Below are positions 42,426 to 59,133 of a stretch of DNA of 64,000 bases, piece after piece. The stretch is from contig JAEUVO010000052.1 of assembly GCA_016786885.1 (NCBI GenBank), positions 12,930-76,929 of the forward strand, written 5' to 3'. This stretch comes from Chitinophagaceae bacterium. GTDB taxonomy: Bacteria > Bacteroidota > Bacteroidia > Chitinophagales > Chitinophagaceae. The notes under the pieces were generated by a model. The model did no database searches. It was not told the origin of the DNA and saw nothing but the letters and a program-made list of their open reading frames with translations. How positions within the stretch are numbered: the stretch's first letter is position 1; the number at the start of each line of letters is the position of its first letter. The position numbers were made by a program, and so were the translations under genes.

Positions 42426-43637
42426 TTAAAATAGCCTGGCAATCTGATACACTCCTGCTGCCAGCAAAGCACTGATAGGAATAGTAAGTACCCATGCCCA
42501 GATTAGGTTGATCGTTACTCCCCATCTGACGGCAGATAATCTCTTTGTAGCACCTACTCCCATAATGGCACCTGTGATGGTGTGGGTGGTACTTACAGGA
42601 ATCTTCAAGGCTTCAGTAATGAAAAGGGTCAATGCGCCGGCAGTTTCTGCAGCTACTCCCTCAAAAGGAGTGACTTTGGTGATCTTGGTGCCCATAGTCT
42701 TTACAATCTTCCAGCCACCACTCATGGTGCCGAGCCCGATTGCAGCATAACATGCAATAGGTACCCAGTCAGGCATTTGTTTGAAATCAGTAATTGTACC
42801 GCCAGCTATTAACGCAGCTGTAATGATTCCCATTACTTTTTGCGCATCATTACCACCGTGCCCAATACTGAATGCGGCTGATGAGATCAATTGTAACCTT
42901 TTAAACCACTGATTTGCTTTATGTGCATTCAGATTGCTCAGGTAAAGAGAAAAAGAAGCCATTACGAGCAAAATGAAGGATAACAGGATCCATTTGAAAT
43001 TTTTCGAATAAAAAATGACCTGGCTGATATAATTTTCATAATGTGTTTTTTTCGCCAGCACCTCTTTATTAAACTCAAGACTAATAGCGAGAAAAATGAT
43101 AACGAAAATTATCACACAAACGGAAAATATTTTTGATGTCCAGCCTTTTTTAAAGGAGCTTAAGAACCATAAAGACATAATGAAGGCCATCACCATACCA
43201 ATGAGGGGCGCCAGGAAAATAAAACTGGCGGTTCTGATAATGATAGATGAATTAACTGCCTCAAATCCTCCTGCTGCAATAGCTGCGCCGGCAAAACCGC
43301 CGATCAGTGTGTGTGAAGATGAAGAAGGAATGCCCAGCCACCATGTCAACAGGTTCCAGGCTATGGCTGCTATTAGGCCGGAAAAAATAACGACCATCAT
43401 ATTACCTTCCAGTATATGATCAGGCTTTACTGTTTTAGCAACAGTATCAGCAACGCCATGGTCTTTGAAGATAAAGAAGGCTATAGAATTAAATACTGCA
43501 GCCCACAAAACTGCCTGGAAAGGAGTAAGTACTTTGGTAGACACTACAGTGGCAATAGAATTGGCCGCATCGTGAAAGCCGTTGATATAATCAAATATCA
43601 GTGCTAGAGCTATGATGGTTATGAGAAAAGGTGTCAT
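42426..43637 (-). CDS. Inorganic phosphate transporter, PiT family
   Basis: NGFHDAANS, PSSSSHTLIG, HGGNDAQK, PVSTTH. Confidence 0.96.
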   Translation of the reverse strand: MTPFLITIIALALIFDYINGFHDAANSIATVVSTKVLTPFQAVLWAAVFNSIAFFIFKDHGVADTVAKTVKPDHILEGNMMVVIFSGLIAAIAWNLLTWWLGIPSSSSHTLIGGFAGAAIAAGGFEAVNSSIIIRTASFIFLAPLIGMVMAFIMSLWFLSSFKKGWTSKIFSVCVIIFVIIFLAISLEFNKEVLAKKTHYENYISQVIFYSKNFKWILLSFILLVMASFSLYLSNLNAHKANQWFKRLQLISSAAFSIGHGGNDAQKVMGIITAALIAGGTITDFKQMPDWVPIACYAAIGLGTMSGGWKIVKTMGTKITKVTPFEGVAAETAGALTLFITEALKIPVSTTHTITGAIMGVGATKRLSAVRWGVTINLIWAWVLTIPISALLAAGVYQIARLF

Positions 43638-43672
43638 AAATATTAGTCAGATGATGGAGTAATAGCTGGTGC

Positions 43673-44323
43673 TTATGCGTATTTGATGATTATTGACTCT
43701 ATCACATTACTGGCGTCTTCACATTTATCAGTAACAATCTCCATTACCTGGTATATTTCTCTTTTTTTGATTACTTCTTTGGCATCTGGCTCCGTAGCGA
43801 ACAGTCTTTCAATACTCATATCAAAAATATCGTCTGCCTGGTTTTCAATGCTGTTTATTTTCACCAAAGCCTCGGTGATATTGCGCATATTTTTCATATC
43901 CCGCAGTTCAGTTACCGCAATTTTTACCTGCTGGCAGCTTTGTTCAATTAACTCAGAAAATTTCTGCATTCCCATATCATTAGGATTTACCCGGTAGAAA
44001 TTGATCTTTTTGGCAGAAGCATAGATATAGTCAGCAATATCATCCAGCGAAGTGGCCAGGTAGTGAATGTCTTCCCTGTCAAACGGGGTAATGAAATTAC
44101 GGCCGAGTTCAGTGAACAGGTTGTGGGTCAGTTCATCATTGGCATGTTCCAGATCTTCGATCTGTATGATCAGGGCAGCTCTTTTATCAAAATCAGGTTC
44201 CGCTACCACATCTTTGAGCTGGGAGCCCATTTTGGATACGTTGTCAGCTACTTTTTCGAATAATTCATAAAATACCTTGTTCTTCGGCATGAAGATCTTC
44301 AGAAAAGAATTGAGTCCGGCCAT
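43673..44323 (-). CDS. DUF47 (PhoU-like) phosphate-transport regulator
   Basis: LEHANDE, FITPFDREDI, ENQADDIF, DKCEDA; directly upstream of PiT. Confidence 0.94.
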   Translation of the reverse strand: MAGLNSFLKIFMPKNKVFYELFEKVADNVSKMGSQLKDVVAEPDFDKRAALIIQIEDLEHANDELTHNLFTELGRNFITPFDREDIHYLATSLDDIADYIYASAKKINFYRVNPNDMGMQKFSELIEQSCQQVKIAVTELRDMKNMRNITEALVKINSIENQADDIFDMSIERLFATEPDAKEVIKKREIYQVMEIVTDKCEDASNVIESIIIKYA

Positions 44324-44420: not shown

Positions 44421-44470
44421 TAATAATAACTTAATATATAAATAAAATTAGGGTAACAATTCAATAACAA
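44421..44470 (+). promoter_or_regulatory. 11-bp-periodic TAA(C)A array (Pho-box-like) upstream of the porin
   Basis: TAATAA 44421, TAATAT 44432, TAAAAT 44443, TAACAA 44454, TAACAA 44465. Confidence 0.6.
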
Positions 44471-44504
44471 AGACTTTATATTGCAGCAATTTTAAGCATA
44501 TATC

Positions 44505-45938: not shown

Positions 45939-48755
45939 ATGTATTTCAGGCTGCGATTATTGTTAAGTGTATTGTTGCTCACTGCTTTTGTATCTCTGCA
46001 TGCCCAATCAATAAAACTTTCGGGTAAGGTTGTTAACAAAAAAAATGAACCACTGCAGGGAGCTACAATTGTTATCAGCGGTGCCGGAAAGCAAGTACAG
46101 GCTGATGTGGAAGGAAAGTTTTATGTAACACTTGAGGCAGGTAAAAAATATACCATCACTGTTTCTAATACCGGCTATCAGACCAAAGAAATAACTGATG
46201 TAGATGTAACGGCTAACCAGGATAATTACCTGGAGATTGTTTTGGAAGATAAGTCAAGCCTTGAGGGGGTGACGATCAGAACATCATCCAGAAGACAAGA
46301 GAATACGACTGCCCTTCTGACTTTTCAAAGAAGTAACACAGCCCTTTCCAGTGGTCTGGCTGCAGACTTTATCCGCCGTACGCCTGATAAAAATACAGGG
46401 GAGGTCTTGAAAAGAGTAAGTGGTACCAGTATACAGGATAACAAATTTGTTATTGTCCGTGGCTTAAGCGACAGGTATAATTCTGCTTTGATCAACAATG
46501 CACAGCTGCCAAGTACAGAGCCTGATAAAAAAGCATTTTCATTTGATGTGATTCCTTCTACACTTATTGATAATATTATCATTAATAAAACAGCCACACC
46601 AGAATTGCCGGGAGAGTTCGCAGGCGGATTGATACAAATAAATACTAAGGATGTACCCACCAGGGATCTGCTTAGTGTTGGTGTAAGCTGGGGCTTCAAT
46701 ACTCAATCAGTGTTCCAGGATTTTATCAGCAATGAGAGGAATGCGAATGACTGGCTCGGTTTTGATGACAGAACAAGGGGATTGCCTAAAGGCTTTCCTA
46801 CTTCTGCACAGGCTTACAGGGCATTAGGGGGTACTACTACCGGTATTCAGCAGCAGATTGAATACAGCAAGTTGTTTAATAATGATGTATACAACGAAAA
46901 AACCACTACAGCTCTACCTTCACAAACTTACAGTCTCACCTGGGGAACAAGCAAGAAATTTAAAAATGGCGGCACATTGGGCAATATACTATCTGTTCAA
47001 TATCGCAACAGTATGCTGAAATATGATGTGGAAAGAAGATTACATGAAGATGATGGAGATGTACTGGTGCAGTTATTTGATGAACAGAACAGATATAGTG
47101 TAAATGTTGGTGCTCTTGCCAATATTTCTTATGTGAAGGGAAGACATAAAATTTCTTTCAAGAATTTATTTAACCAGCTGTTTGAAGATAATTATTATAC
47201 CCGTGGTGGTGTTAGTAATGACCGTATCCAGGATATCAATTTCCGTTCTTCAGTACTAAACCAGCGTTCATTATACAGCGGACAAATTGAAGGCAACCAC
47301 CAACTGACCAATAGTGGTATCAAACTGATGTGGAATGGCAACTTTGCCTATAACTGGAAGTCACAGCCAGATCTACGCACTTCGGCTTATTTCCGTGGAA
47401 AAGGAACCAATGATCCTTTTGAATTTAACGATGACGACACCCGTCGCTTTTTCAGTGACCTGAAGGATTATAGCTACGGCGCTACAGGAAGCCTGACCAT
47501 TCCATTTGTTTTCAAGAAACAAAAGCAAACATTCAAGGCCGGAGGGTCAACTTTAATCCGTATCCGTGATTTCCGCAGCCGCATTTTCCGCTATGAACCG
47601 GCGAATGTATCTCAGTTTGACGCAACTAAGAACCAACTTCCTTACAACCAAATATTCGCCCAGGAAAATATAGCACTGGATGGATTTAAGATCCTCGATT
47701 TTACCAATAACCAGGATAAATATTTTGGTGTGTCTGTACTGAACGGTATGTATGGCATGTTCGATAATAAGTTTGGAGAGCAAGTACGGCTGGTATGGGG
47801 TGTAAGAGTGGAAAACTTCCAGCAGTTTCTTACTACAAGAGATGTGACGGCTAAAAGAGTAGTAGTAAATACAGAAAAATGGGATGTGCTTCCTTCTTTC
47901 AACTTTACACTTTCTCCCAATAATAAACACAGTATACGGGTAGCGGGCAGCCGCACAGTAGCCAGACCGGAATTCAGAGAGATCGCACCTTTCTCTTTCT
48001 TTGATTACGAAGTGAACTATGCAGTAAATGGAAATCCGGATCTGAAAAGAACTTCCATTCTCAATGGGGATGTTCGTTATGAATTTTATCCCAAAGGTGG
48101 TGAAGCAATCACTATCGGCGCCTTTTACAAAAACTTTGATGACCCGATTGAACTACGACTGAATCCTTCGAGTGTATTGGACAGACGTAACTATGAGTAT
48201 ACCAATGCTGACAAGGCTTACTCAATCGGTGCTGAATTTGAAGTAAGAAAAAATCTTGATTTCCTAAGTAAATCACTGGAGAATTTCAGCGCCTTTATCA
48301 ATCTTACTTATATCTATTCAAAGGTTACTCTTGCTTCTACTTCCGGAACCGGCAGTGCTACTACTTCTAACCGTCCTTTACAAGGGCAATCTCCTTACCT
48401 GGCCAATTTGGGGTTACAGTATAACAGCAAGAAGGGCGGATGGAATGGTTCGTTGCTGTACAACAGGATCGGTCAGCGGCTGGCACTGGTTGGAATAAAT
48501 GACCTGGGTTTCCCGGATATATATGAAAGACCCCGTGACCAGGTAGATCTGCAGATCGCCAAAAAAATATTCAAAGACAGGGGTGAATTGAAACTTACTT
48601 GGGCAGATATCCTGAACCCCGCTTATTATTTCTATGAGAATGTGGACAGCAAGAAAGCATACAGCGGTGGTAATGACAGGTTGTTCTACTCCTATACACC
48701 GGGTTCAACCATTTCAATTGGTTTCACCTACGATTTCAATGTTGGAAAAAAATAA
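45939..48755 (+). CDS. TonB-dependent receptor
   Basis: Signal peptide, carboxypeptidase-like N-domain, plug (RGLSDRYNS, FDVIPS, LPGEFAGG), TVARPEFRE, GNPDL, C-terminal barrel strands. Confidence 0.94.
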   Translation: MYFRLRLLLSVLLLTAFVSLHAQSIKLSGKVVNKKNEPLQGATIVISGAGKQVQADVEGKFYVTLEAGKKYTITVSNTGYQTKEITDVDVTANQDNYLEIVLEDKSSLEGVTIRTSSRRQENTTALLTFQRSNTALSSGLAADFIRRTPDKNTGEVLKRVSGTSIQDNKFVIVRGLSDRYNSALINNAQLPSTEPDKKAFSFDVIPSTLIDNIIINKTATPELPGEFAGGLIQINTKDVPTRDLLSVGVSWGFNTQSVFQDFISNERNANDWLGFDDRTRGLPKGFPTSAQAYRALGGTTTGIQQQIEYSKLFNNDVYNEKTTTALPSQTYSLTWGTSKKFKNGGTLGNILSVQYRNSMLKYDVERRLHEDDGDVLVQLFDEQNRYSVNVGALANISYVKGRHKISFKNLFNQLFEDNYYTRGGVSNDRIQDINFRSSVLNQRSLYSGQIEGNHQLTNSGIKLMWNGNFAYNWKSQPDLRTSAYFRGKGTNDPFEFNDDDTRRFFSDLKDYSYGATGSLTIPFVFKKQKQTFKAGGSTLIRIRDFRSRIFRYEPANVSQFDATKNQLPYNQIFAQENIALDGFKILDFTNNQDKYFGVSVLNGMYGMFDNKFGEQVRLVWGVRVENFQQFLTTRDVTAKRVVVNTEKWDVLPSFNFTLSPNNKHSIRVAGSRTVARPEFREIAPFSFFDYEVNYAVNGNPDLKRTSILNGDVRYEFYPKGGEAITIGAFYKNFDDPIELRLNPSSVLDRRNYEYTNADKAYSIGAEFEVRKNLDFLSKSLENFSAFINLTYIYSKVTLASTSGTGSATTSNRPLQGQSPYLANLGLQYNSKKGGWNGSLLYNRIGQRLALVGINDLGFPDIYERPRDQVDLQIAKKIFKDRGELKLTWADILNPAYYFYENVDSKKAYSGGNDRLFYSYTPGSTISIGFTYDFNVGKK

Positions 48756-48799
48756 CTCTACAATAAATAACTAAAACAAAAACACAAAACAAAAATTAT

Positions 48800-50152
48800 A
48801 TGAAGAAGATTCTTTTCGGTGCACTGGCTTTTATAGCGCTTTTCAGTACACCCTCTTGTGTGAAGGTGAATTTTGATGAAGGAGAGGTAATTACTCCTGC
48901 ACCCGACCCTACCAGTAATGTTATCACAGGGGTTATTTCCTCCAGTAAGTTTTATGCAAAGGGAAAGTGGGTGTTGAAAGGATATGTGTATGTAACAGAA
49001 GGTGCCACTATTACTTTTGAAGCTGGTTGTGTTGTTCAGAGTGATATTACAGAGAAGGGTGCGCTGATCATTGAAAGGGGCGCCAAGCTGATTGCTTCCG
49101 GAACAAAAGATAACCCGATTGTATTCACCAGCGGAAAAGCTGTTGGATCAAGAGCACCCGGTGATTGGGGTGGTATTATTTTATTAGGTAAAGCGCCAAC
49201 CAATCGTCCGCTTGACCCGGCTCCAACTATCGAAGGTGGTGTAGGCCGCCAGTACGGCGGAATTGATCCGCTGGACGAAAGTGGTATCCTGCGTTTCGTT
49301 CGTATTGAGTATGCAGGTATTGCAGCAGAACCCGGATCTGAAATAAATGGGTTAACCTGTGGTGGTGTTGGTTCAGGCACTATTATCGAGAACGTACAGG
49401 TTTCTTTTGGAAATGATGATGCATTTGAATTCTTTGGGGGTACCGTAAATGCCAAGAACCTTATCGCTTTTGCAACAGCGGATGATGATTTTGATTTCGA
49501 CTTTGGGTATAGTGGAAAAATTCAGTTCGGTATTTCTATGCGTAAACCGGATTTTGTTGATGCAGGTGATGCCGGAAACGGTATTGAGTGCGACAATGAT
49601 GGTAGCGGAACCAACGCAACTCCTGTTACAAAACCACAATTAAGCAATTTTACTTTTGTGGGACCAAATGATGCGACCGGTACAGCAGCCAATCATAATT
49701 ATTCAAACCGCTGGAGAAGAAGAACACAGTTTATTCTTCGCAACTCAATCCTGATCGGGCATCCTGATGCAGGCTTCTCCATGGAATCTGATGGCACACT
49801 TAATGATTATTACGTAAATAATATTTCAGAATTCAAGAATAACCTGGTTCATGCCACTGCTAATGTGTACCGCTCAGGTAATACTGCTATTGCTACCGCA
49901 GCACAGATCCAGGCAAAGGCTGAAAGTGAAGGTTGTGTTACTCTGGCTACATCAGCAGCAGCTCAGTTAACCAGTCCTTTTTACTCTACCACACCTAATT
50001 TTTTACCTGCGACCGGCTCACCTGCATTAAGCGGTTCAAGTTTTACCGGTATGAATGCTTTCTTTACTGCTACTACTTACCGTGGCGCTATGGGAACTAC
50101 AGACTGGACAGCTACCTGGACCAACTGGGATCCGCAGAACAAGGCCTATTAA
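48800..50152 (+). CDS. Lipoprotein of unknown function, probable beta-helix fold
   Basis: Cys after hydrophobic leader (TPSC), GDWGGIILLGKAP, SGILRFVRIEYAG, DDAFEFFGG, DDDFDFDFG, NGIECDN. Confidence 0.8.
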   Translation: MKKILFGALAFIALFSTPSCVKVNFDEGEVITPAPDPTSNVITGVISSSKFYAKGKWVLKGYVYVTEGATITFEAGCVVQSDITEKGALIIERGAKLIASGTKDNPIVFTSGKAVGSRAPGDWGGIILLGKAPTNRPLDPAPTIEGGVGRQYGGIDPLDESGILRFVRIEYAGIAAEPGSEINGLTCGGVGSGTIIENVQVSFGNDDAFEFFGGTVNAKNLIAFATADDDFDFDFGYSGKIQFGISMRKPDFVDAGDAGNGIECDNDGSGTNATPVTKPQLSNFTFVGPNDATGTAANHNYSNRWRRRTQFILRNSILIGHPDAGFSMESDGTLNDYYVNNISEFKNNLVHATANVYRSGNTAIATAAQIQAKAESEGCVTLATSAAAQLTSPFYSTTPNFLPATGSPALSGSSFTGMNAFFTATTYRGAMGTTDWTATWTNWDPQNKAY

Positions 50153-50176: not shown

Positions 50177-50205
50177 ACGTCCTGAATTTTCAGGACGTTT
50201 TTTTT
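50177..50205 (+). terminator. Intrinsic terminator of the TBDR-lipoprotein operon
   Basis: ACGTCCTGAA-tt-TTCAGGACGT followed by a T run. Confidence 0.85.
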
Positions 50206-57537: not shown

Positions 57538-59133
57538 ATGAAAAAGTACATACTAACTTTCACAGCAGCAGTGATCTTATTCACTTCCTGTAAAAAAAAG
57601 TTTGAAGATCTTGAAAGTAACCCCAATCTTCCCGAGAGTGTACCAGCAGCACTGGCATTGAATGGCATTGAAACCAGCATGGCCGGTTTTCAACGCCCCT
57701 GGAACCTGGAACAACGCTGGAACCAGTTTGCCTGCTGCAATTATAATTACTACGGCAACCAGGAGTATAACTGGAGCGGGGCGTCTTTATTTTATACAAC
57801 ATTGAAAAATGTTATAAAGATGGAAGAGGAAGCAAAGGCAGGCGGTGGAGGAGATGTAAATCCCTACTCTGCTTTGGGTAAATTTTTCAGGGCTTATTTC
57901 TTTTATGAAATGACGATGAGGGTAGGTGATCTGCCGATGAAAGAGGCATTAAACGGAATAAATAATCTTACCCCAAAGTATGATACGCAAAAAGAAATAT
58001 TCATACAGGTAATTAAATGGCTGGAAGAAGCCAATACAGATATAACAGCACTTATTGCTTCTGCGAATAATACCTTGTTAGGTGATTATTTCTTTAATAA
58101 TGATTTGCGGAAATGGCAAAATGTCGTAAACACATTCCGCCTCCGGGTACTCATCAGCCTGAGTAAAAAAAGCGGTGATGCCGATCTGGCATTAGGGTCA
58201 TCTTTTTCTGCTATCATGAGTAATAAACCAAAGTACCCGGTAATAGAGAGTATGAATGATAACCTGCAGTTTGTTTGGGTTAATCCATTCAATAAATACC
58301 CGATTAACCCTGATAACTTTGGATTTGATGCAACCCGTTACAATATGTCTTCTACTCATATTGGCCTGCTGACCTCTCTTAAAGATCCCCGAGTCTTCGC
58401 AGTAGCTGACCCCGCAGGTTCACAGCTTAAAGCTGGCCTCTTGCCATCTGATCATGATGCGTACGTTGGTGCAAGCCCGGCTGAAGATCTTGCTGACATG
58501 TCAACTAAAGCGGGATTTGATAATGGCCCGGGTTTTACACCGGGTAAATATTCATTTTATGGCCGCTACCGTTATTACCGTACTTACACAGCAGAGAATA
58601 CTATCTTGATCGGATATCCTGAATTGTGTTTCAATATTGCTGAAGCGATCAATCTTGGTTGGATAAGTGGAAATGCAGAGGAGTGGTATATAAAAGGAAT
58701 AAAGGCTTCAATAGGGTTTTATGGGATTAAAGATGGAATCAATGATTTTTATTATCTAAAACCTGGTGGTAAGGTAACTGAAAGTGCTGATTATATAAAC
58801 TATAAAGTAACCTTTGTATTCAATGACTATTACAGCCAGCCTGCTGTAGCGTATGCCGGTAATAATGCCACTGGTAGGAACCAAATACTCAATCAGAAGT
58901 ATCTTGCTTTTTTTCAAAACTCAGGATTTGAAGCATATTATAACCAGCGTCGTACAGGAGTTCCTGTTTTTGCGCAGGGTGGCCCGGGAACAGGTAACAG
59001 CGGTCAGATACCGAAGAGATTTCAGTACCCCGGTACAGAAAGAACTACCAATCCAGCTAACCTGGCAGAAGCATTGCAAAGACAGTTTGCCGGACAGGAT
59101 AATATAAATGCAGCAATGTGGCTGATCCAATAA
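57538..59133 (+). CDS. SusD/RagB family lipoprotein
   Basis: Lipobox TSC-KKKFED, SNPNLP, GDLPMKEAL, PKYDTQKEI, QKYLAFF...EAYYNQRRTG, PKRFQYP. Confidence 0.95.
   Translation: MKKYILTFTAAVILFTSCKKKFEDLESNPNLPESVPAALALNGIETSMAGFQRPWNLEQRWNQFACCNYNYYGNQEYNWSGASLFYTTLKNVIKMEEEAKAGGGGDVNPYSALGKFFRAYFFYEMTMRVGDLPMKEALNGINNLTPKYDTQKEIFIQVIKWLEEANTDITALIASANNTLLGDYFFNNDLRKWQNVVNTFRLRVLISLSKKSGDADLALGSSFSAIMSNKPKYPVIESMNDNLQFVWVNPFNKYPINPDNFGFDATRYNMSSTHIGLLTSLKDPRVFAVADPAGSQLKAGLLPSDHDAYVGASPAEDLADMSTKAGFDNGPGFTPGKYSFYGRYRYYRTYTAENTILIGYPELCFNIAEAINLGWISGNAEEWYIKGIKASIGFYGIKDGINDFYYLKPGGKVTESADYINYKVTFVFNDYYSQPAVAYAGNNATGRNQILNQKYLAFFQNSGFEAYYNQRRTGVPVFAQGGPGTGNSGQIPKRFQYPGTERTTNPANLAEALQRQFAGQDNINAAMWLIQ

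Follow-up and report, generated by a model that had tools for sequence, protein, structure and literature searches.

We report that the two-gene operon at positions 45,939 to 50,152 of a 64,000-nucleotide stretch of Chitinophagaceae DNA (hereafter the window) is the Chitinophagaceae copy of an already described pair, a TonB-dependent receptor (TBDR) and a surface lipoprotein of the ElpS type, and that it adds no new system. The operon is probably a PhoB-controlled outer-membrane uptake module in which the lipoprotein captures a phosphorus-containing ligand for the transporter. Membership of the family, pairing with a receptor in two phyla, the phosphate-regulon context, the predicted fold and the pattern of conserved residues are established. 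A first-pass annotation had described a two-gene operon with an operator array, a terminator and a lipoprotein rich in acidic motifs, and this description as a whole is confirmed from the sequence; of its interpretation the phosphate island, the non-SusD beta-helix, the cation-like site and the role as a lid have survived, and the labels "unrecognized" and "phosphatase" have not.

Operon layout and phosphate-regulon neighbourhood

The operon is composed of the receptor gene P0001 (45939..48755, + strand, 938 aa) and the lipoprotein gene P0002 (48800..50152, + strand, 450 aa), separated by an A-rich spacer of 44 nt (48756..48799, + strand) without a terminator or promoter match, which implies co-transcription. 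Downstream lies the terminator that had been proposed for it, a strong intrinsic one formed by a hairpin at 50177-50198 with a 9-bp stem and a 4-nt loop, followed by seven T residues (50177..50205, + strand). Reading of the sequence and a phased scan identified a Pho-box-like operator 5' of P0001 (45846..45922, + strand) composed of six TAACAT-type units phased at 11 nt, four of which are exact. As the only site in the whole window with four exact phased units it could pass for the strongest operator array, as had been suggested, but this is only partly right since the array at 44421-44480 rivals it, with five of its six units within one mismatch. A crude Pho-box score detected at least three phased units in 29 of 55 related loci, a score which is too strict given that the window's own array reaches only 2.

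The second array belongs to the gene of a porin-like outer-membrane protein, P0003 (44505..45836, + strand), which has a signal peptide and the C-terminus ...RLQFRF; as P0003 has no family match, the porin label is one that we infer. Its homologues are found near the pair in the related loci L005, L020, L024, L041 and L059. Divergently oriented is an operon identified by domain match as PhoU_div (DUF47) and a PHO4/PitA-type phosphate transporter (42426..44323, - strand), an arrangement repeated in 12-15 related loci. Directly downstream of the pair a small lipoprotein of 150 aa, P0004 (50219..50671, + strand), is kept in that position in about 10 Chitinophagales loci and is a possible third component. 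The window also carries a PlcP-like phosphoesterase with a glycosyltransferase, as well as further phosphoesterases, and a PhoB-like regulator is encoded on the same contig. Recurrent neighbours in the related loci are a PhoB-type regulator (17), PitA (15), PlcP (11) and an OlsF-like gene (8). The pair thus sits inside a phosphate-regulon island, as the PhoU_div-PitA operon, the PlcP-like phosphoesterase and the nearby phased array testify, and the operon is putatively under the control of PhoB. The genus lacks PstA and PstB.

The receptor, the lipoprotein and their relatives

P0001 is composed of a signal peptide, a CarboxypepD_reg domain (27-103), a TonB-box linker at about 106-121, and the Plug and TonB_dep_Rec_b-barrel domains (Pfam scan). 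A SusC-type identity was rejected, as the SusC/RagA model TIGR04056 matches only over its N-terminal 86 positions and at 41.6 bits, far from the curated cut-off of 368 (NCBIfam). Against TIGR01782, a type of receptor which often carries carbohydrates, it scored 200 bits (cut-off 310). The AF2 model (pLDDT 83.9) retrieved generic TonB-dependent transporters with Foldseek, the best being FecA (E 1.5e-27) and OprC being among the matches. Alignment of 61 receptors showed conserved Arg and Lys residues that include R422, R543, R623, R667, R713, K731 and R847. With 26% identity over its full length (E 1e-50) to the receptor beside the ElpS-type gene of Sphingomonas, P0001 is by sequence its orthologue.

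The N-terminus of P0002 (MKKILFGALAFIALFSTPSC) carries a lipobox with Cys20 (codon 48857-48859), which is invariant among the homologues (alignment A1). A Lys followed by Asp/Glu after the cysteine resembles the export signal of the Bacteroidota, a signal which the clade of P0002 shows in a weaker than canonical form (CVKVNFDEGE) and other clades show clearly. The mature protein has a pI of 4.8. In some records near-identical proteins go by the name "T9SS C-terminal target domain-containing", but a reading as T9SS cargo was rejected because NCBIfam finds no such domain in P0002. Pfam-A and NCBIfam scans gave no family match at all, SusD included; no Pfam family matched at E <= 0.1, while the true SusD encoded at 57538-59133 of the window reached 1e-58. 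The AF2 model (pLDDT 91.2) is an all-beta right-handed helix and not an alpha-helical/TPR fold, so that the claims of a non-SusD protein and of a probable beta-helix both hold, the latter as a confident prediction. Searching the PDB by sequence returned only spurious matches to designed "Cake" proteins. The top Foldseek matches of the model were all parallel beta-helix proteins, the Ca-dependent PL9/PL3/PL6 lyases among them, but these matches were weak (E >= 5e-3, TM 0.2-0.4).

Clustered at 90% identity, the homologues of P0002 fill more than 7,900 clusters; at 50% identity they are covered by 6,423 representatives. The names of 10 diverse cluster representatives were only "hypothetical protein". 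Contrary to what had been claimed, the family is not unrecognized: it appears in the literature as ElpS (PMC2996285), under the names FI/FII/FIII (PMC8115612) and through the putative lid BT4056, and has the Pfam entry PF28492, which in precomputed Pfam annotation is carried by all 120 homologues listed, out of the more than 7,900 clusters. To this widespread ElpS / FII / BT4056 family P0002 belongs on sequence grounds, the tie to ElpS, Fjoh_0546 and BT4056 resting on shared gene order, on the published accounts and on the orthologue in Sphingomonas. Its core (residues 68-287) is 41% identical to the protein of the Sphingomonas elpS-type locus (E 1e-35), and an HMM built from its relatives matches proteins of Alteromonas, Indioceanicola and Sphingomonas (E 1e-62 to 1e-81). 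In these three genera the lipoprotein and receptor genes are both homologous and adjacent, in an ElpS-type T2SS or a phoBR context: the order in Sphingomonas is homologue-TBDR-gspN/D/E, which is the layout of the ElpS locus, and in Alteromonas phoB-phoR-pstS...3-domain homologue-TBDR-exbBD-tonB. The lipoprotein was present in 134 of 201 sampled Bacteroidota genomes, the gene of the orthologous TBDR lay directly upstream on the same strand in 57 of 60 related loci, and the two were in proximity in 88 of 108 genera. Judged by this homology and gene order the pairing is conserved across two phyla. Many relatives consist of two to five domains in tandem, an architecture less suited to a simple lid than to an enzyme or to a binder of polymers or surfaces.

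ElpS itself (CC0170/CCNA_00169 of Caulobacter crescentus) was described in 2010 together with the TonB-dependent receptor CC0171 (PMC2996285) and is a lipoprotein of the cell surface whose induction under phosphate starvation depends on PhoB (PMC2996285, PMC5172544); CC0171 is reported to be constitutive, with elpS induced and ElpS shed into the medium. P0002 resembles it as a lipoprotein of the ~50 kDa type with Cys20, in having an adjacent orthologous-type TBDR and, from sequence evidence, in its putative control by phosphate starvation, and it has the beta-helix core and the DDxxE / DDxFDxD motifs in common with the ElpS-syntenic Sphingomonas orthologue. The two systems differ in that the lipoprotein gene lies upstream of the receptor gene in Proteobacteria and downstream in the window, that the linked T2SS which releases ElpS has no counterpart at the window locus, that the C-terminal cap motif of P0002 sits N-terminally in the alphaproteobacterial protein, and that P0001 has the CarboxypepD_reg N-domain of the Bacteroidota. 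A second relative is the Flavobacterium pair described in 2020, Fjoh_0545 (TBDT) and Fjoh_0546 (FII), which is strongly induced by phosphate starvation and abundant in the exoproteome (PMC8115612). This pair shares with ours the order of TBDT then lipoprotein in a phosphorus-related cluster and the pectin-lyase-fold assignment; its Pho cluster (phoBR, OprP, glycosyltransferase) is repeated in the Chryseobacterium locus L071. The likeness is known by description, and where F. johnsoniae has phoBR the partner operon in the window is PhoU_div-PitA; F. johnsoniae also has three paralogues (FI, FII, FIII), whereas the window's genome has a single copy of the family.

The third relative, BT4055/BT4056 of Bacteroides thetaiotaomicron, was predicted in 2023 as an "alternative lid" pair with proximity in 621 genera; AlphaFold-Multimer gave only few high-confidence contacts, 519 conditions revealed no fitness phenotype, and Price et al. 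quote an InterPro assignment to the pectin-lyase fold (10.1101/2023.03.17.533168). It is likewise a non-SusC TBDT with a non-SusD lipoprotein, in proximity across hundreds of genera, but its role as a lid is predicted only, and the Pho evidence belongs to the other relatives. Solved complexes of non-SusD lipoproteins with TBDTs, BtuB-BtuG (8bmx) and XusA-XusB (9gbc), follow the same principle of capping and ligand binding, as do SusCD and PusCD, the latter importing organophosphorus under phosphate limitation (10.64898/2026.09.03.749221). In BtuG/XusB/SusD-type lipoproteins the ligands are established and the folds (beta-propeller or TPR-like) are unrelated to the beta-helix of P0002.

The carboxylate ladder and competing functions

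The three acidic motifs pointed out in the first-pass annotation are all present (GNDDAFEFFGG, 204-214; ADDDFDFDFG, 227-236; IECDNDG, 262-268), and across 288 domain copies they are the most conserved feature of the family. Nearly every conserved polar residue is a carboxylate or an amide (E145, D159, E181, N183, D206, D207, E210, D228, D229, D232, E263 and D265), with no conserved His, Lys or Arg in these copies. A ladder defined by conservation (E181, N183, D206, D207, E210, D228, D229, D232, D234, E263 and D265; codons within 49340..49597, + strand) stacks on four successive rungs of the helix, with the register read off the model's DSSP string, and has the look of the metal-chelating site that had been proposed. 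In Ca2+-dependent beta-helix lyases stacked Asp/Glu residues hold Ca2+ that bridges a linear polyanion. P0002 shares the right-handed beta-helix and the stacked acidic residues with the PL1, PL3, PL6 and PL9 pectate/alginate lyases, but differs from them in the lack of a conserved catalytic Lys/Arg and of any sequence family match, and in the weakness of the structural matches. By this analogy the ladder is most likely occupied by Ca2+ or Mg2+. Carboxylates do not bind phosphate without a bridge, and the cation bridge is purely what we infer; a ladder of carboxylates and amides without a basic residue points to cation-mediated binding rather than to a classical phosphatase.

The most likely role of P0002 is that of a surface-exposed, cation-loaded capture partner which supplies the transporter with a phosphorus compound. 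When phosphate runs short, a PhoB-like regulator would bind the phased TAACAT array and turn on both genes, as suggested by the sequence and by experiments on the relatives. The lipoprotein, lipidated at Cys20, would be displayed on the cell surface, where about eleven conserved Asp/Glu, lined up in a strip along four rungs, would hold Ca2+ or Mg2+, and these cations would bind the anionic phosphorus-containing ligand much as polygalacturonate is held by Ca2+-dependent pectate lyases. Acting as a capture protein or non-SusD lid, the lipoprotein would hand the ligand to the transporter for import with TonB energy; periplasmic enzymes would then free phosphate, to be taken up by the neighbouring PitA-type carrier. 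Counting against this role are the few predicted contacts and the missing phenotype of BT4055/BT4056, the constitutive CC0171 and the shedding of ElpS in Caulobacter, the tandem multi-domain relatives and the weak export signal in the clade of P0002. The earlier suggestion of a lid for organophosphate uptake is also the reading favoured in the literature (Price et al. 2023 preprint, 10.1101/2023.03.17.533168), in which no ligand is reported for any member of the ElpS/FII/BT4056 family.

The suggestion of a surface phosphatase has fared worse. Refolded and immunoprecipitated ElpS had no activity on pNPP (PMC2996285), which makes a phosphomonoesterase unlikely, and no typical His/Lys/Arg or nucleophile is conserved. 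Membership among the alkaline phosphatases and nucleases (PhoA, PhoD, PhoX, PafA, EndA) was rejected on the same ElpS result and the lack of a Pfam/NCBIfam match, and membership among pectate lyases or GH28 on the lack of a conserved Lys/Arg base and of NTD, GDD, GHG and RIK motifs, with Foldseek at E >= 5e-3. An enzyme of another kind, such as a diesterase, nuclease or polyphosphatase, is possible but fairly unlikely: here the ladder would serve as the metal-dependent active site of a pectate-lyase/glycosidase-like groove and cleave a phosphorus-rich polyanion at the cell surface (polyphosphate, teichoic acid, nucleic acid or phosphoglycan), the fragments being imported by the TBDR. The beta-helix is the fold of polysaccharide lyases and hydrolases, the paired DD on adjacent rungs recalls the GH28 "GDD" motif, tandem multi-domain forms occur, FI/FII were modelled on polygalacturonase by Lidbury et al. 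(PMC8115612), and overproduction of ElpS raises phosphatase activity in supernatants (PMC2996285). Against this, the lyase base and the His/Arg/Lys of the GH28 motifs are missing, the structural matches are weak, pNPP was not hydrolysed by ElpS preparations, an exoprotein of such very high abundance (PMC8115612) is more typically a binding protein, and no dedicated downstream hydrolase is conserved around the pair in the related loci.

A variant of the capture role, by analogy with pectate lyases, is that the Ca2+/Mg2+-loaded ladder may bind metal-phosphate, pyrophosphate or short polyphosphate, the pair being a TonB-energised high-affinity route for inorganic phosphorus with the lipoprotein possibly shed as a hemophore-like "phosphophore"; PitA-type carriers are a class known to move metal-phosphate complexes, and we regard this variant as unlikely. 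Quite unlikely is a lipoprotein which works mainly after its release, either as a hemophore-like shuttle of phosphorus compounds docking on the TBDR or as an activator or scaffold of secreted phosphatases. ElpS is indeed cleaved and released in a T2SS-dependent manner and stimulates extracellular alkaline phosphatase activity (PMC2996285), T2SS genes adjoin the pair in Sphingomonas and Indioceanicola, and FI/FII/FIII dominate the phosphate-depleted exoproteome of Flavobacterium (PMC8115612); however, none of the related Bacteroidota loci has a linked T2SS, vesicles or shedding can enrich a protein in the exoproteome, a phosphatase partner beside the pair is not conserved, and the activator version leaves the strict adjacency of the TBDR unexplained.

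We consider it very unlikely that the acidic strip takes Ca2+, Fe3+ or Al3+ from mineral phosphates, thereby solubilising phosphate, while the TBDR imports the metal or a metal complex. The purely carboxylate site, the fact that some TBDTs transport bare metal ions (one of them, OprC, is a structural match of the receptor) and the ferric-citrate transporter FecA as the nearest match of the receptor would suit such a role, but the likeness to FecA is one that all TBDTs share, the regulating signal is phosphate and not iron, with tight repression under Fe and N limitation (PMC8115612), and the window holds no metal-regulon context. A glycan-utilisation pair with a pectin-like substrate, placed in the phosphate island by chance, would fit the pectin-lyase-fold assignment (Foldseek; InterPro, as cited above) and the often carbohydrate-carrying TIGR01782 type of receptor, but is extremely improbable in view of the Pho array directly upstream, a phosphorus-stress neighbourhood kept over dozens of loci in two phyla, induction by phosphate starvation shown experimentally in two model organisms, and the absence of CAZyme or sugar catabolism genes adjacent to the pair.

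Significance for phosphorus acquisition

The family is among the most widespread and most strongly induced functions of phosphate starvation in the Bacteroidota and many Proteobacteria; two thirds of the Bacteroidota genomes in the sample carry it, and it provides the top exoprotein of phosphate-starved Flavobacterium. Its ligand is a gap in how bacteria of soil, water and the gut acquire phosphorus. With its single copy the window provides an uncomplicated example from a genus that lacks PstCAB, and the carboxylate/amide ladder without a basic residue sharpens the biochemical question by pointing to cation-mediated binding and away from a classical phosphatase. If the ligand were inorganic or condensed phosphate, the pair would be the main scavenging pathway of this genus, using the Pho-controlled PitA-type carrier.

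Operon and phosphate-stress neighbourhood

The gene for the TonB-dependent receptor P0001 (45939-48755, forward strand; 938 aa) is separated by 44 nt from that for the lipoprotein P0002 (48800-50152, forward strand; 450 aa), and both open reading frames have exactly the coordinates assigned in the first-pass annotation. No terminator was found in the 44-nt gap, and a hairpin with a 9-bp stem followed by a T7 tail lies 3' of the lipoprotein gene, which bears out the proposal of a two-gene operon with its own terminator; the operon is real and well delimited. It had also been credited with the strongest operator array. Upstream of the receptor gene there are six units with an 11-nt period, four of which are exact TAACAT, and a phased scan found four exact units nowhere else in the window; by near-matches, however, the array preceding the porin-like gene P0003 is ahead, with 5 of 6 units at one mismatch or fewer, and the claim therefore holds for exact units only.

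The pair sits inside a phosphate-stress island. Divergent to it lies a PhoU_div-PHO4/PitA operon (42426-44323, reverse strand), and P0003 (44505-45836, forward strand) has a signal peptide, a C-terminal RLQFRF and its own 11-nt-phased TAACA-type array (44421-44480). For P0003, searches of Pfam, NCBIfam and the PDB gave no match. Its homologues are found close to the pair at five further loci, and P0003 may itself be a phosphate porin of divergent sequence. Beginning 20 nt past the operon terminator is the gene for a small lipoprotein, P0004 (50219-50671, forward strand; 150 aa, ...LLTVAC), which has no family match, recurs immediately 3' of the lipoprotein gene at about 10 loci of Chitinophagales and is a possible third component of the module. 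The window also carries a calcineurin-like (PlcP-type) phosphoesterase and a glycosyltransferase downstream of the pair, a SusC/SusD pair and two phosphoesterase-propeller proteins. The genome's top-scoring PhoB-like response regulator (G000:C51:87064-87723, reverse strand; 227 bits to TIGR02154) is encoded on the same contig as the window, some 10 kb beyond its end.

PstB was below the NCBIfam cut-off in the source genome and in all 12 same-genus genomes (best 160 versus 343 bits), as was PstA in the source genome (34 versus 193 bits), and one PstS-like PBP_like_2 gene is retained (G000:C55:38385-39116). Judging from these scores, high-affinity Pst transport seems to be absent, so that Pi uptake at the inner membrane seems to depend on the PitA-type carrier encoded beside the pair; the Pho-array-linked PhoU_div-PitA operon may be the main Pi carrier.

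The neighbourhood was compared across 80 loci from named genomes. A P0001 homologue was immediately upstream on the same strand in 57 of the 60 loci with sufficient upstream sequence. Recurrent neighbours were an OmpR/PhoB-type regulator (17 loci), PitA (15), PhoU_div (12), PlcP (11), an unannotated 400-aa protein (11), P0004 (10) and an OlsF-like acyltransferase (8), and in a Chryseobacterium locus a response regulator and a histidine kinase lie divergently beside the pair. The OlsF-like enzyme is bifunctional (PF13444 and PF19576) and adjoins the pair at L042:4050-5801 and in seven other loci, together with PlcP-like and glycosyltransferase genes; this places phosphorus-free lipid synthesis in a cluster with the uptake module across Bacteroidota.

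Receptor and beta-helix lipoprotein

P0001 has a cleavable signal peptide followed by CarboxypepD_reg, Plug and TonB-dependent beta-barrel domains (Pfam). Assignment to SusC was rejected, as TIGR04056 covers just the first 86 model positions and scores 41.6 bits where the cut-off is 368; among full-length NCBIfam matches the highest was to TIGR01782, of Xanthomonas/Caulobacter type (200 bits, under the cut-off of 310). In the AlphaFold2 model (pLDDT 83.9) an Ig-like domain at the N terminus is followed by a TonB-box linker, which is disordered, and then by the plug and a tall barrel. In Foldseek it shows a generic likeness to TonB-dependent transporters, with FecA at the top (E 1.5e-27); BtuB-BtuG and XusA-XusB, lipoprotein complexes of solved structure, are among the matches. 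Many invariant arginines are common to 61 aligned orthologues.

P0002 begins with MKKILFGALAFIALFSTPSC and contains all the acidic motifs previously noted, as GNDDAFEFFGG, ADDDFDFDFG and IECDNDG. It matched nothing in Pfam or NCBIfam, SusD included, whereas a true SusD encoded at another place in the window reaches 1e-58; the lipoprotein is, as had been claimed, not SusD-like. The suspected beta-helix was likewise recovered: from 42 sequences AlphaFold2 predicted, with high confidence (pLDDT 91.2, pTM 0.89), a parallel beta-helix of right-handed twist in which residues 1-31 are disordered. In most homologues the lipid-modified Cys is followed by K and then D/E runs resembling the Bacteroidota lipoprotein export signal, and the clade of P0002 has a weaker export-type sequence, CVKVNFDEGE.

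Conservation was assessed in 288 domain copies from 153 proteins, three of them proteobacterial. Those kept in at least 88% of copies comprise glycines, some hydrophobic residues, W123 and a polar set composed of E145, D159, E181, N183, D206, D207, E210, D228, D229, D232, E263, D265, Q242, N283 and N315; the 288 copies have not one conserved His, Lys or Arg. By DSSP the DD lies in the turn preceding a short strand from which the E/D points outward, a pattern that recurs every 22-31 residues over four successive rungs (180-182, 209-212, 231-234 and 262-264), and in the model the conserved carboxylates would therefore stack as a ladder. With a pI of 4.8 the mature protein is acidic, and its core 141-270 has 22 D/E against 7 K/R.

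A family spanning two phyla

Of 8,000 scored candidates taken from a set clustered at 90% identity, 7,992 matched P0002 at E <= 0.001, and at 50% identity the family has 6,423 representatives; precomputed Pfam PF28492 was present on 120 of 120 homologues among the matches listed. In an even draw of 201 Bacteroidota genomes the lipoprotein was found in 134, and in 88 of 108 genera; the source genome has one copy. Multiple tandem ElpS-type units are common, with two copies in 71 and three to five in 31 of the 153 top representatives, and the carboxylate ladder is kept in every tandem copy; L082:4256-8326 and L083:6785-9655 are examples, besides those among the representatives at 50% identity. 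The 450-aa homologues P0052, P0096 and P0110 (81-83% identical) are named in NCBI records "T9SS C-terminal target domain-containing protein", which is likely a misannotation, as NCBIfam shows no such domain in P0002. Two metagenomic contigs, L001 (labelled Sphingomonadales, with Chitinophagaceae-like neighbours) and L069 (Bifidobacteriaceae), carry Bacteroidota-type loci at 83% and 42% identity to P0002, and their labels are probably binning errors.

The relation to Caulobacter ElpS was addressed through annotated proteobacterial replicons rather than by direct alignment to ElpS, Fjoh_0546 or BT4056. The gene layout described for elpS, in which the lipoprotein, a TonB-dependent receptor and gspN/gspD/gspE come in that order, recurs with homologues in Sphingomonas parapaucimobilis and Indioceanicola profundi, and in Alteromonas macleodii phoB-phoR-pstS precedes a three-domain homologue, a receptor and exbB-exbD-tonB. 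P0002 keeps its acidic motifs in an alignment with the Sphingomonas protein that covers residues 68-287 at 41% identity (E 1e-35), and P0001 aligns over its full length with the neighbouring receptor (E 1e-50); both genes are thus orthologous across two phyla, and just their order is inverted. The C-terminal segment of P0002, P-x-x-G-S...F(F/Y)..T.Y.GA.G..DW, falls, when aligned, on the N-terminal side of the Sphingomonas beta-helix (L084:6305-7933 versus window 48800-50152) and forms the linker between tandem copies, so that the domain boundary looks permuted between phyla.

The lipoprotein was put forward as possibly "unrecognized", but its family is already in the literature. The F. johnsoniae "hypothetical lipoproteins" FI, FII and FIII (Fjoh_3856, 0546 and 4889), relatives of ElpS modelled on a polygalacturonase-like fold, are among the most Pi-depletion-induced and abundant exoproteins, and the FII gene comes after the Pi-induced transporter gene Fjoh_0545 inside the phoBR cluster (Lidbury et al., PMC8115612). 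ElpS, a lipoprotein of about 50 kDa (Cys20) anchored at the cell surface, is produced under Pi starvation only, and its gene adjoins those for the TonB receptor CC0171 and a T2SS (PMC2996285); its induction requires PhoB (PMC5172544). BT4056 of B. thetaiotaomicron is 40% identical to Fjoh_0546 and a distant relative of ElpS, and BT4055 and BT4056 lie close together in 621 genera, 394 of Bacteroidota and 171 of Proteobacteria (Price et al., 10.1101/2023.03.17.533168).

Proposed role in phosphorus uptake

The best supported reading, and in our view a probable one, is a PhoB-controlled uptake module in which the lipoprotein would capture an anionic phosphorus compound at the cell surface and hand it to the TonB-dependent transporter. 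The earlier idea of a lid agrees with the published listing of BT4055/BT4056 among "alternative lids", a pair for which AlphaFold-Multimer gives few contacts of high confidence and which has no fitness phenotype (10.1101/2023.03.17.533168); a 2026 preprint that solves the SusCD-like P importers PusCD does not deal with this family (10.64898/2026.09.03.749221). A strip of some 11 carboxylates that lacks any basic residue is unable to bind phosphate directly and has to be neutralised, from which we infer that Ca2+ or Mg2+ bound on it would bridge to the ligand. Ca-dependent pectate lyases and the beta-propeller phytase are analogues for such a Ca2+-bridged ligand.

Foldseek against the PDB, a check proposed at the outset, found no close solved structure for P0002, only weak matches (E >= 5e-3, TM 0.2-0.4), all of them beta-helix proteins; at the top were AlgE4 epimerase, pectin methylesterase and three Ca-dependent lyase families, PL9, PL3 and PL6. 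A surface depolymerase cutting a P-rich polyanion is an unlikely but real competitor; across the loci examined no specific hydrolase was a recurrent neighbour. A phosphatase, as had been suggested, is not supported: refolded and immunoprecipitated ElpS had no pNPP activity (PMC2996285), and the family lacks a conserved His, Lys or Arg. Proteolysis releases ElpS, and its overproduction raises phosphatase activity in the supernatant (PMC2996285). That P0002 is a shed shuttle or phosphatase activator appears improbable. Stripping of metal from mineral phosphates by the pair is more doubtful again, and a glycan system with no relation to P is scarcely credible for a pair inside a phosphate-stress island. 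The operon itself is an ordinary member of an already known family.
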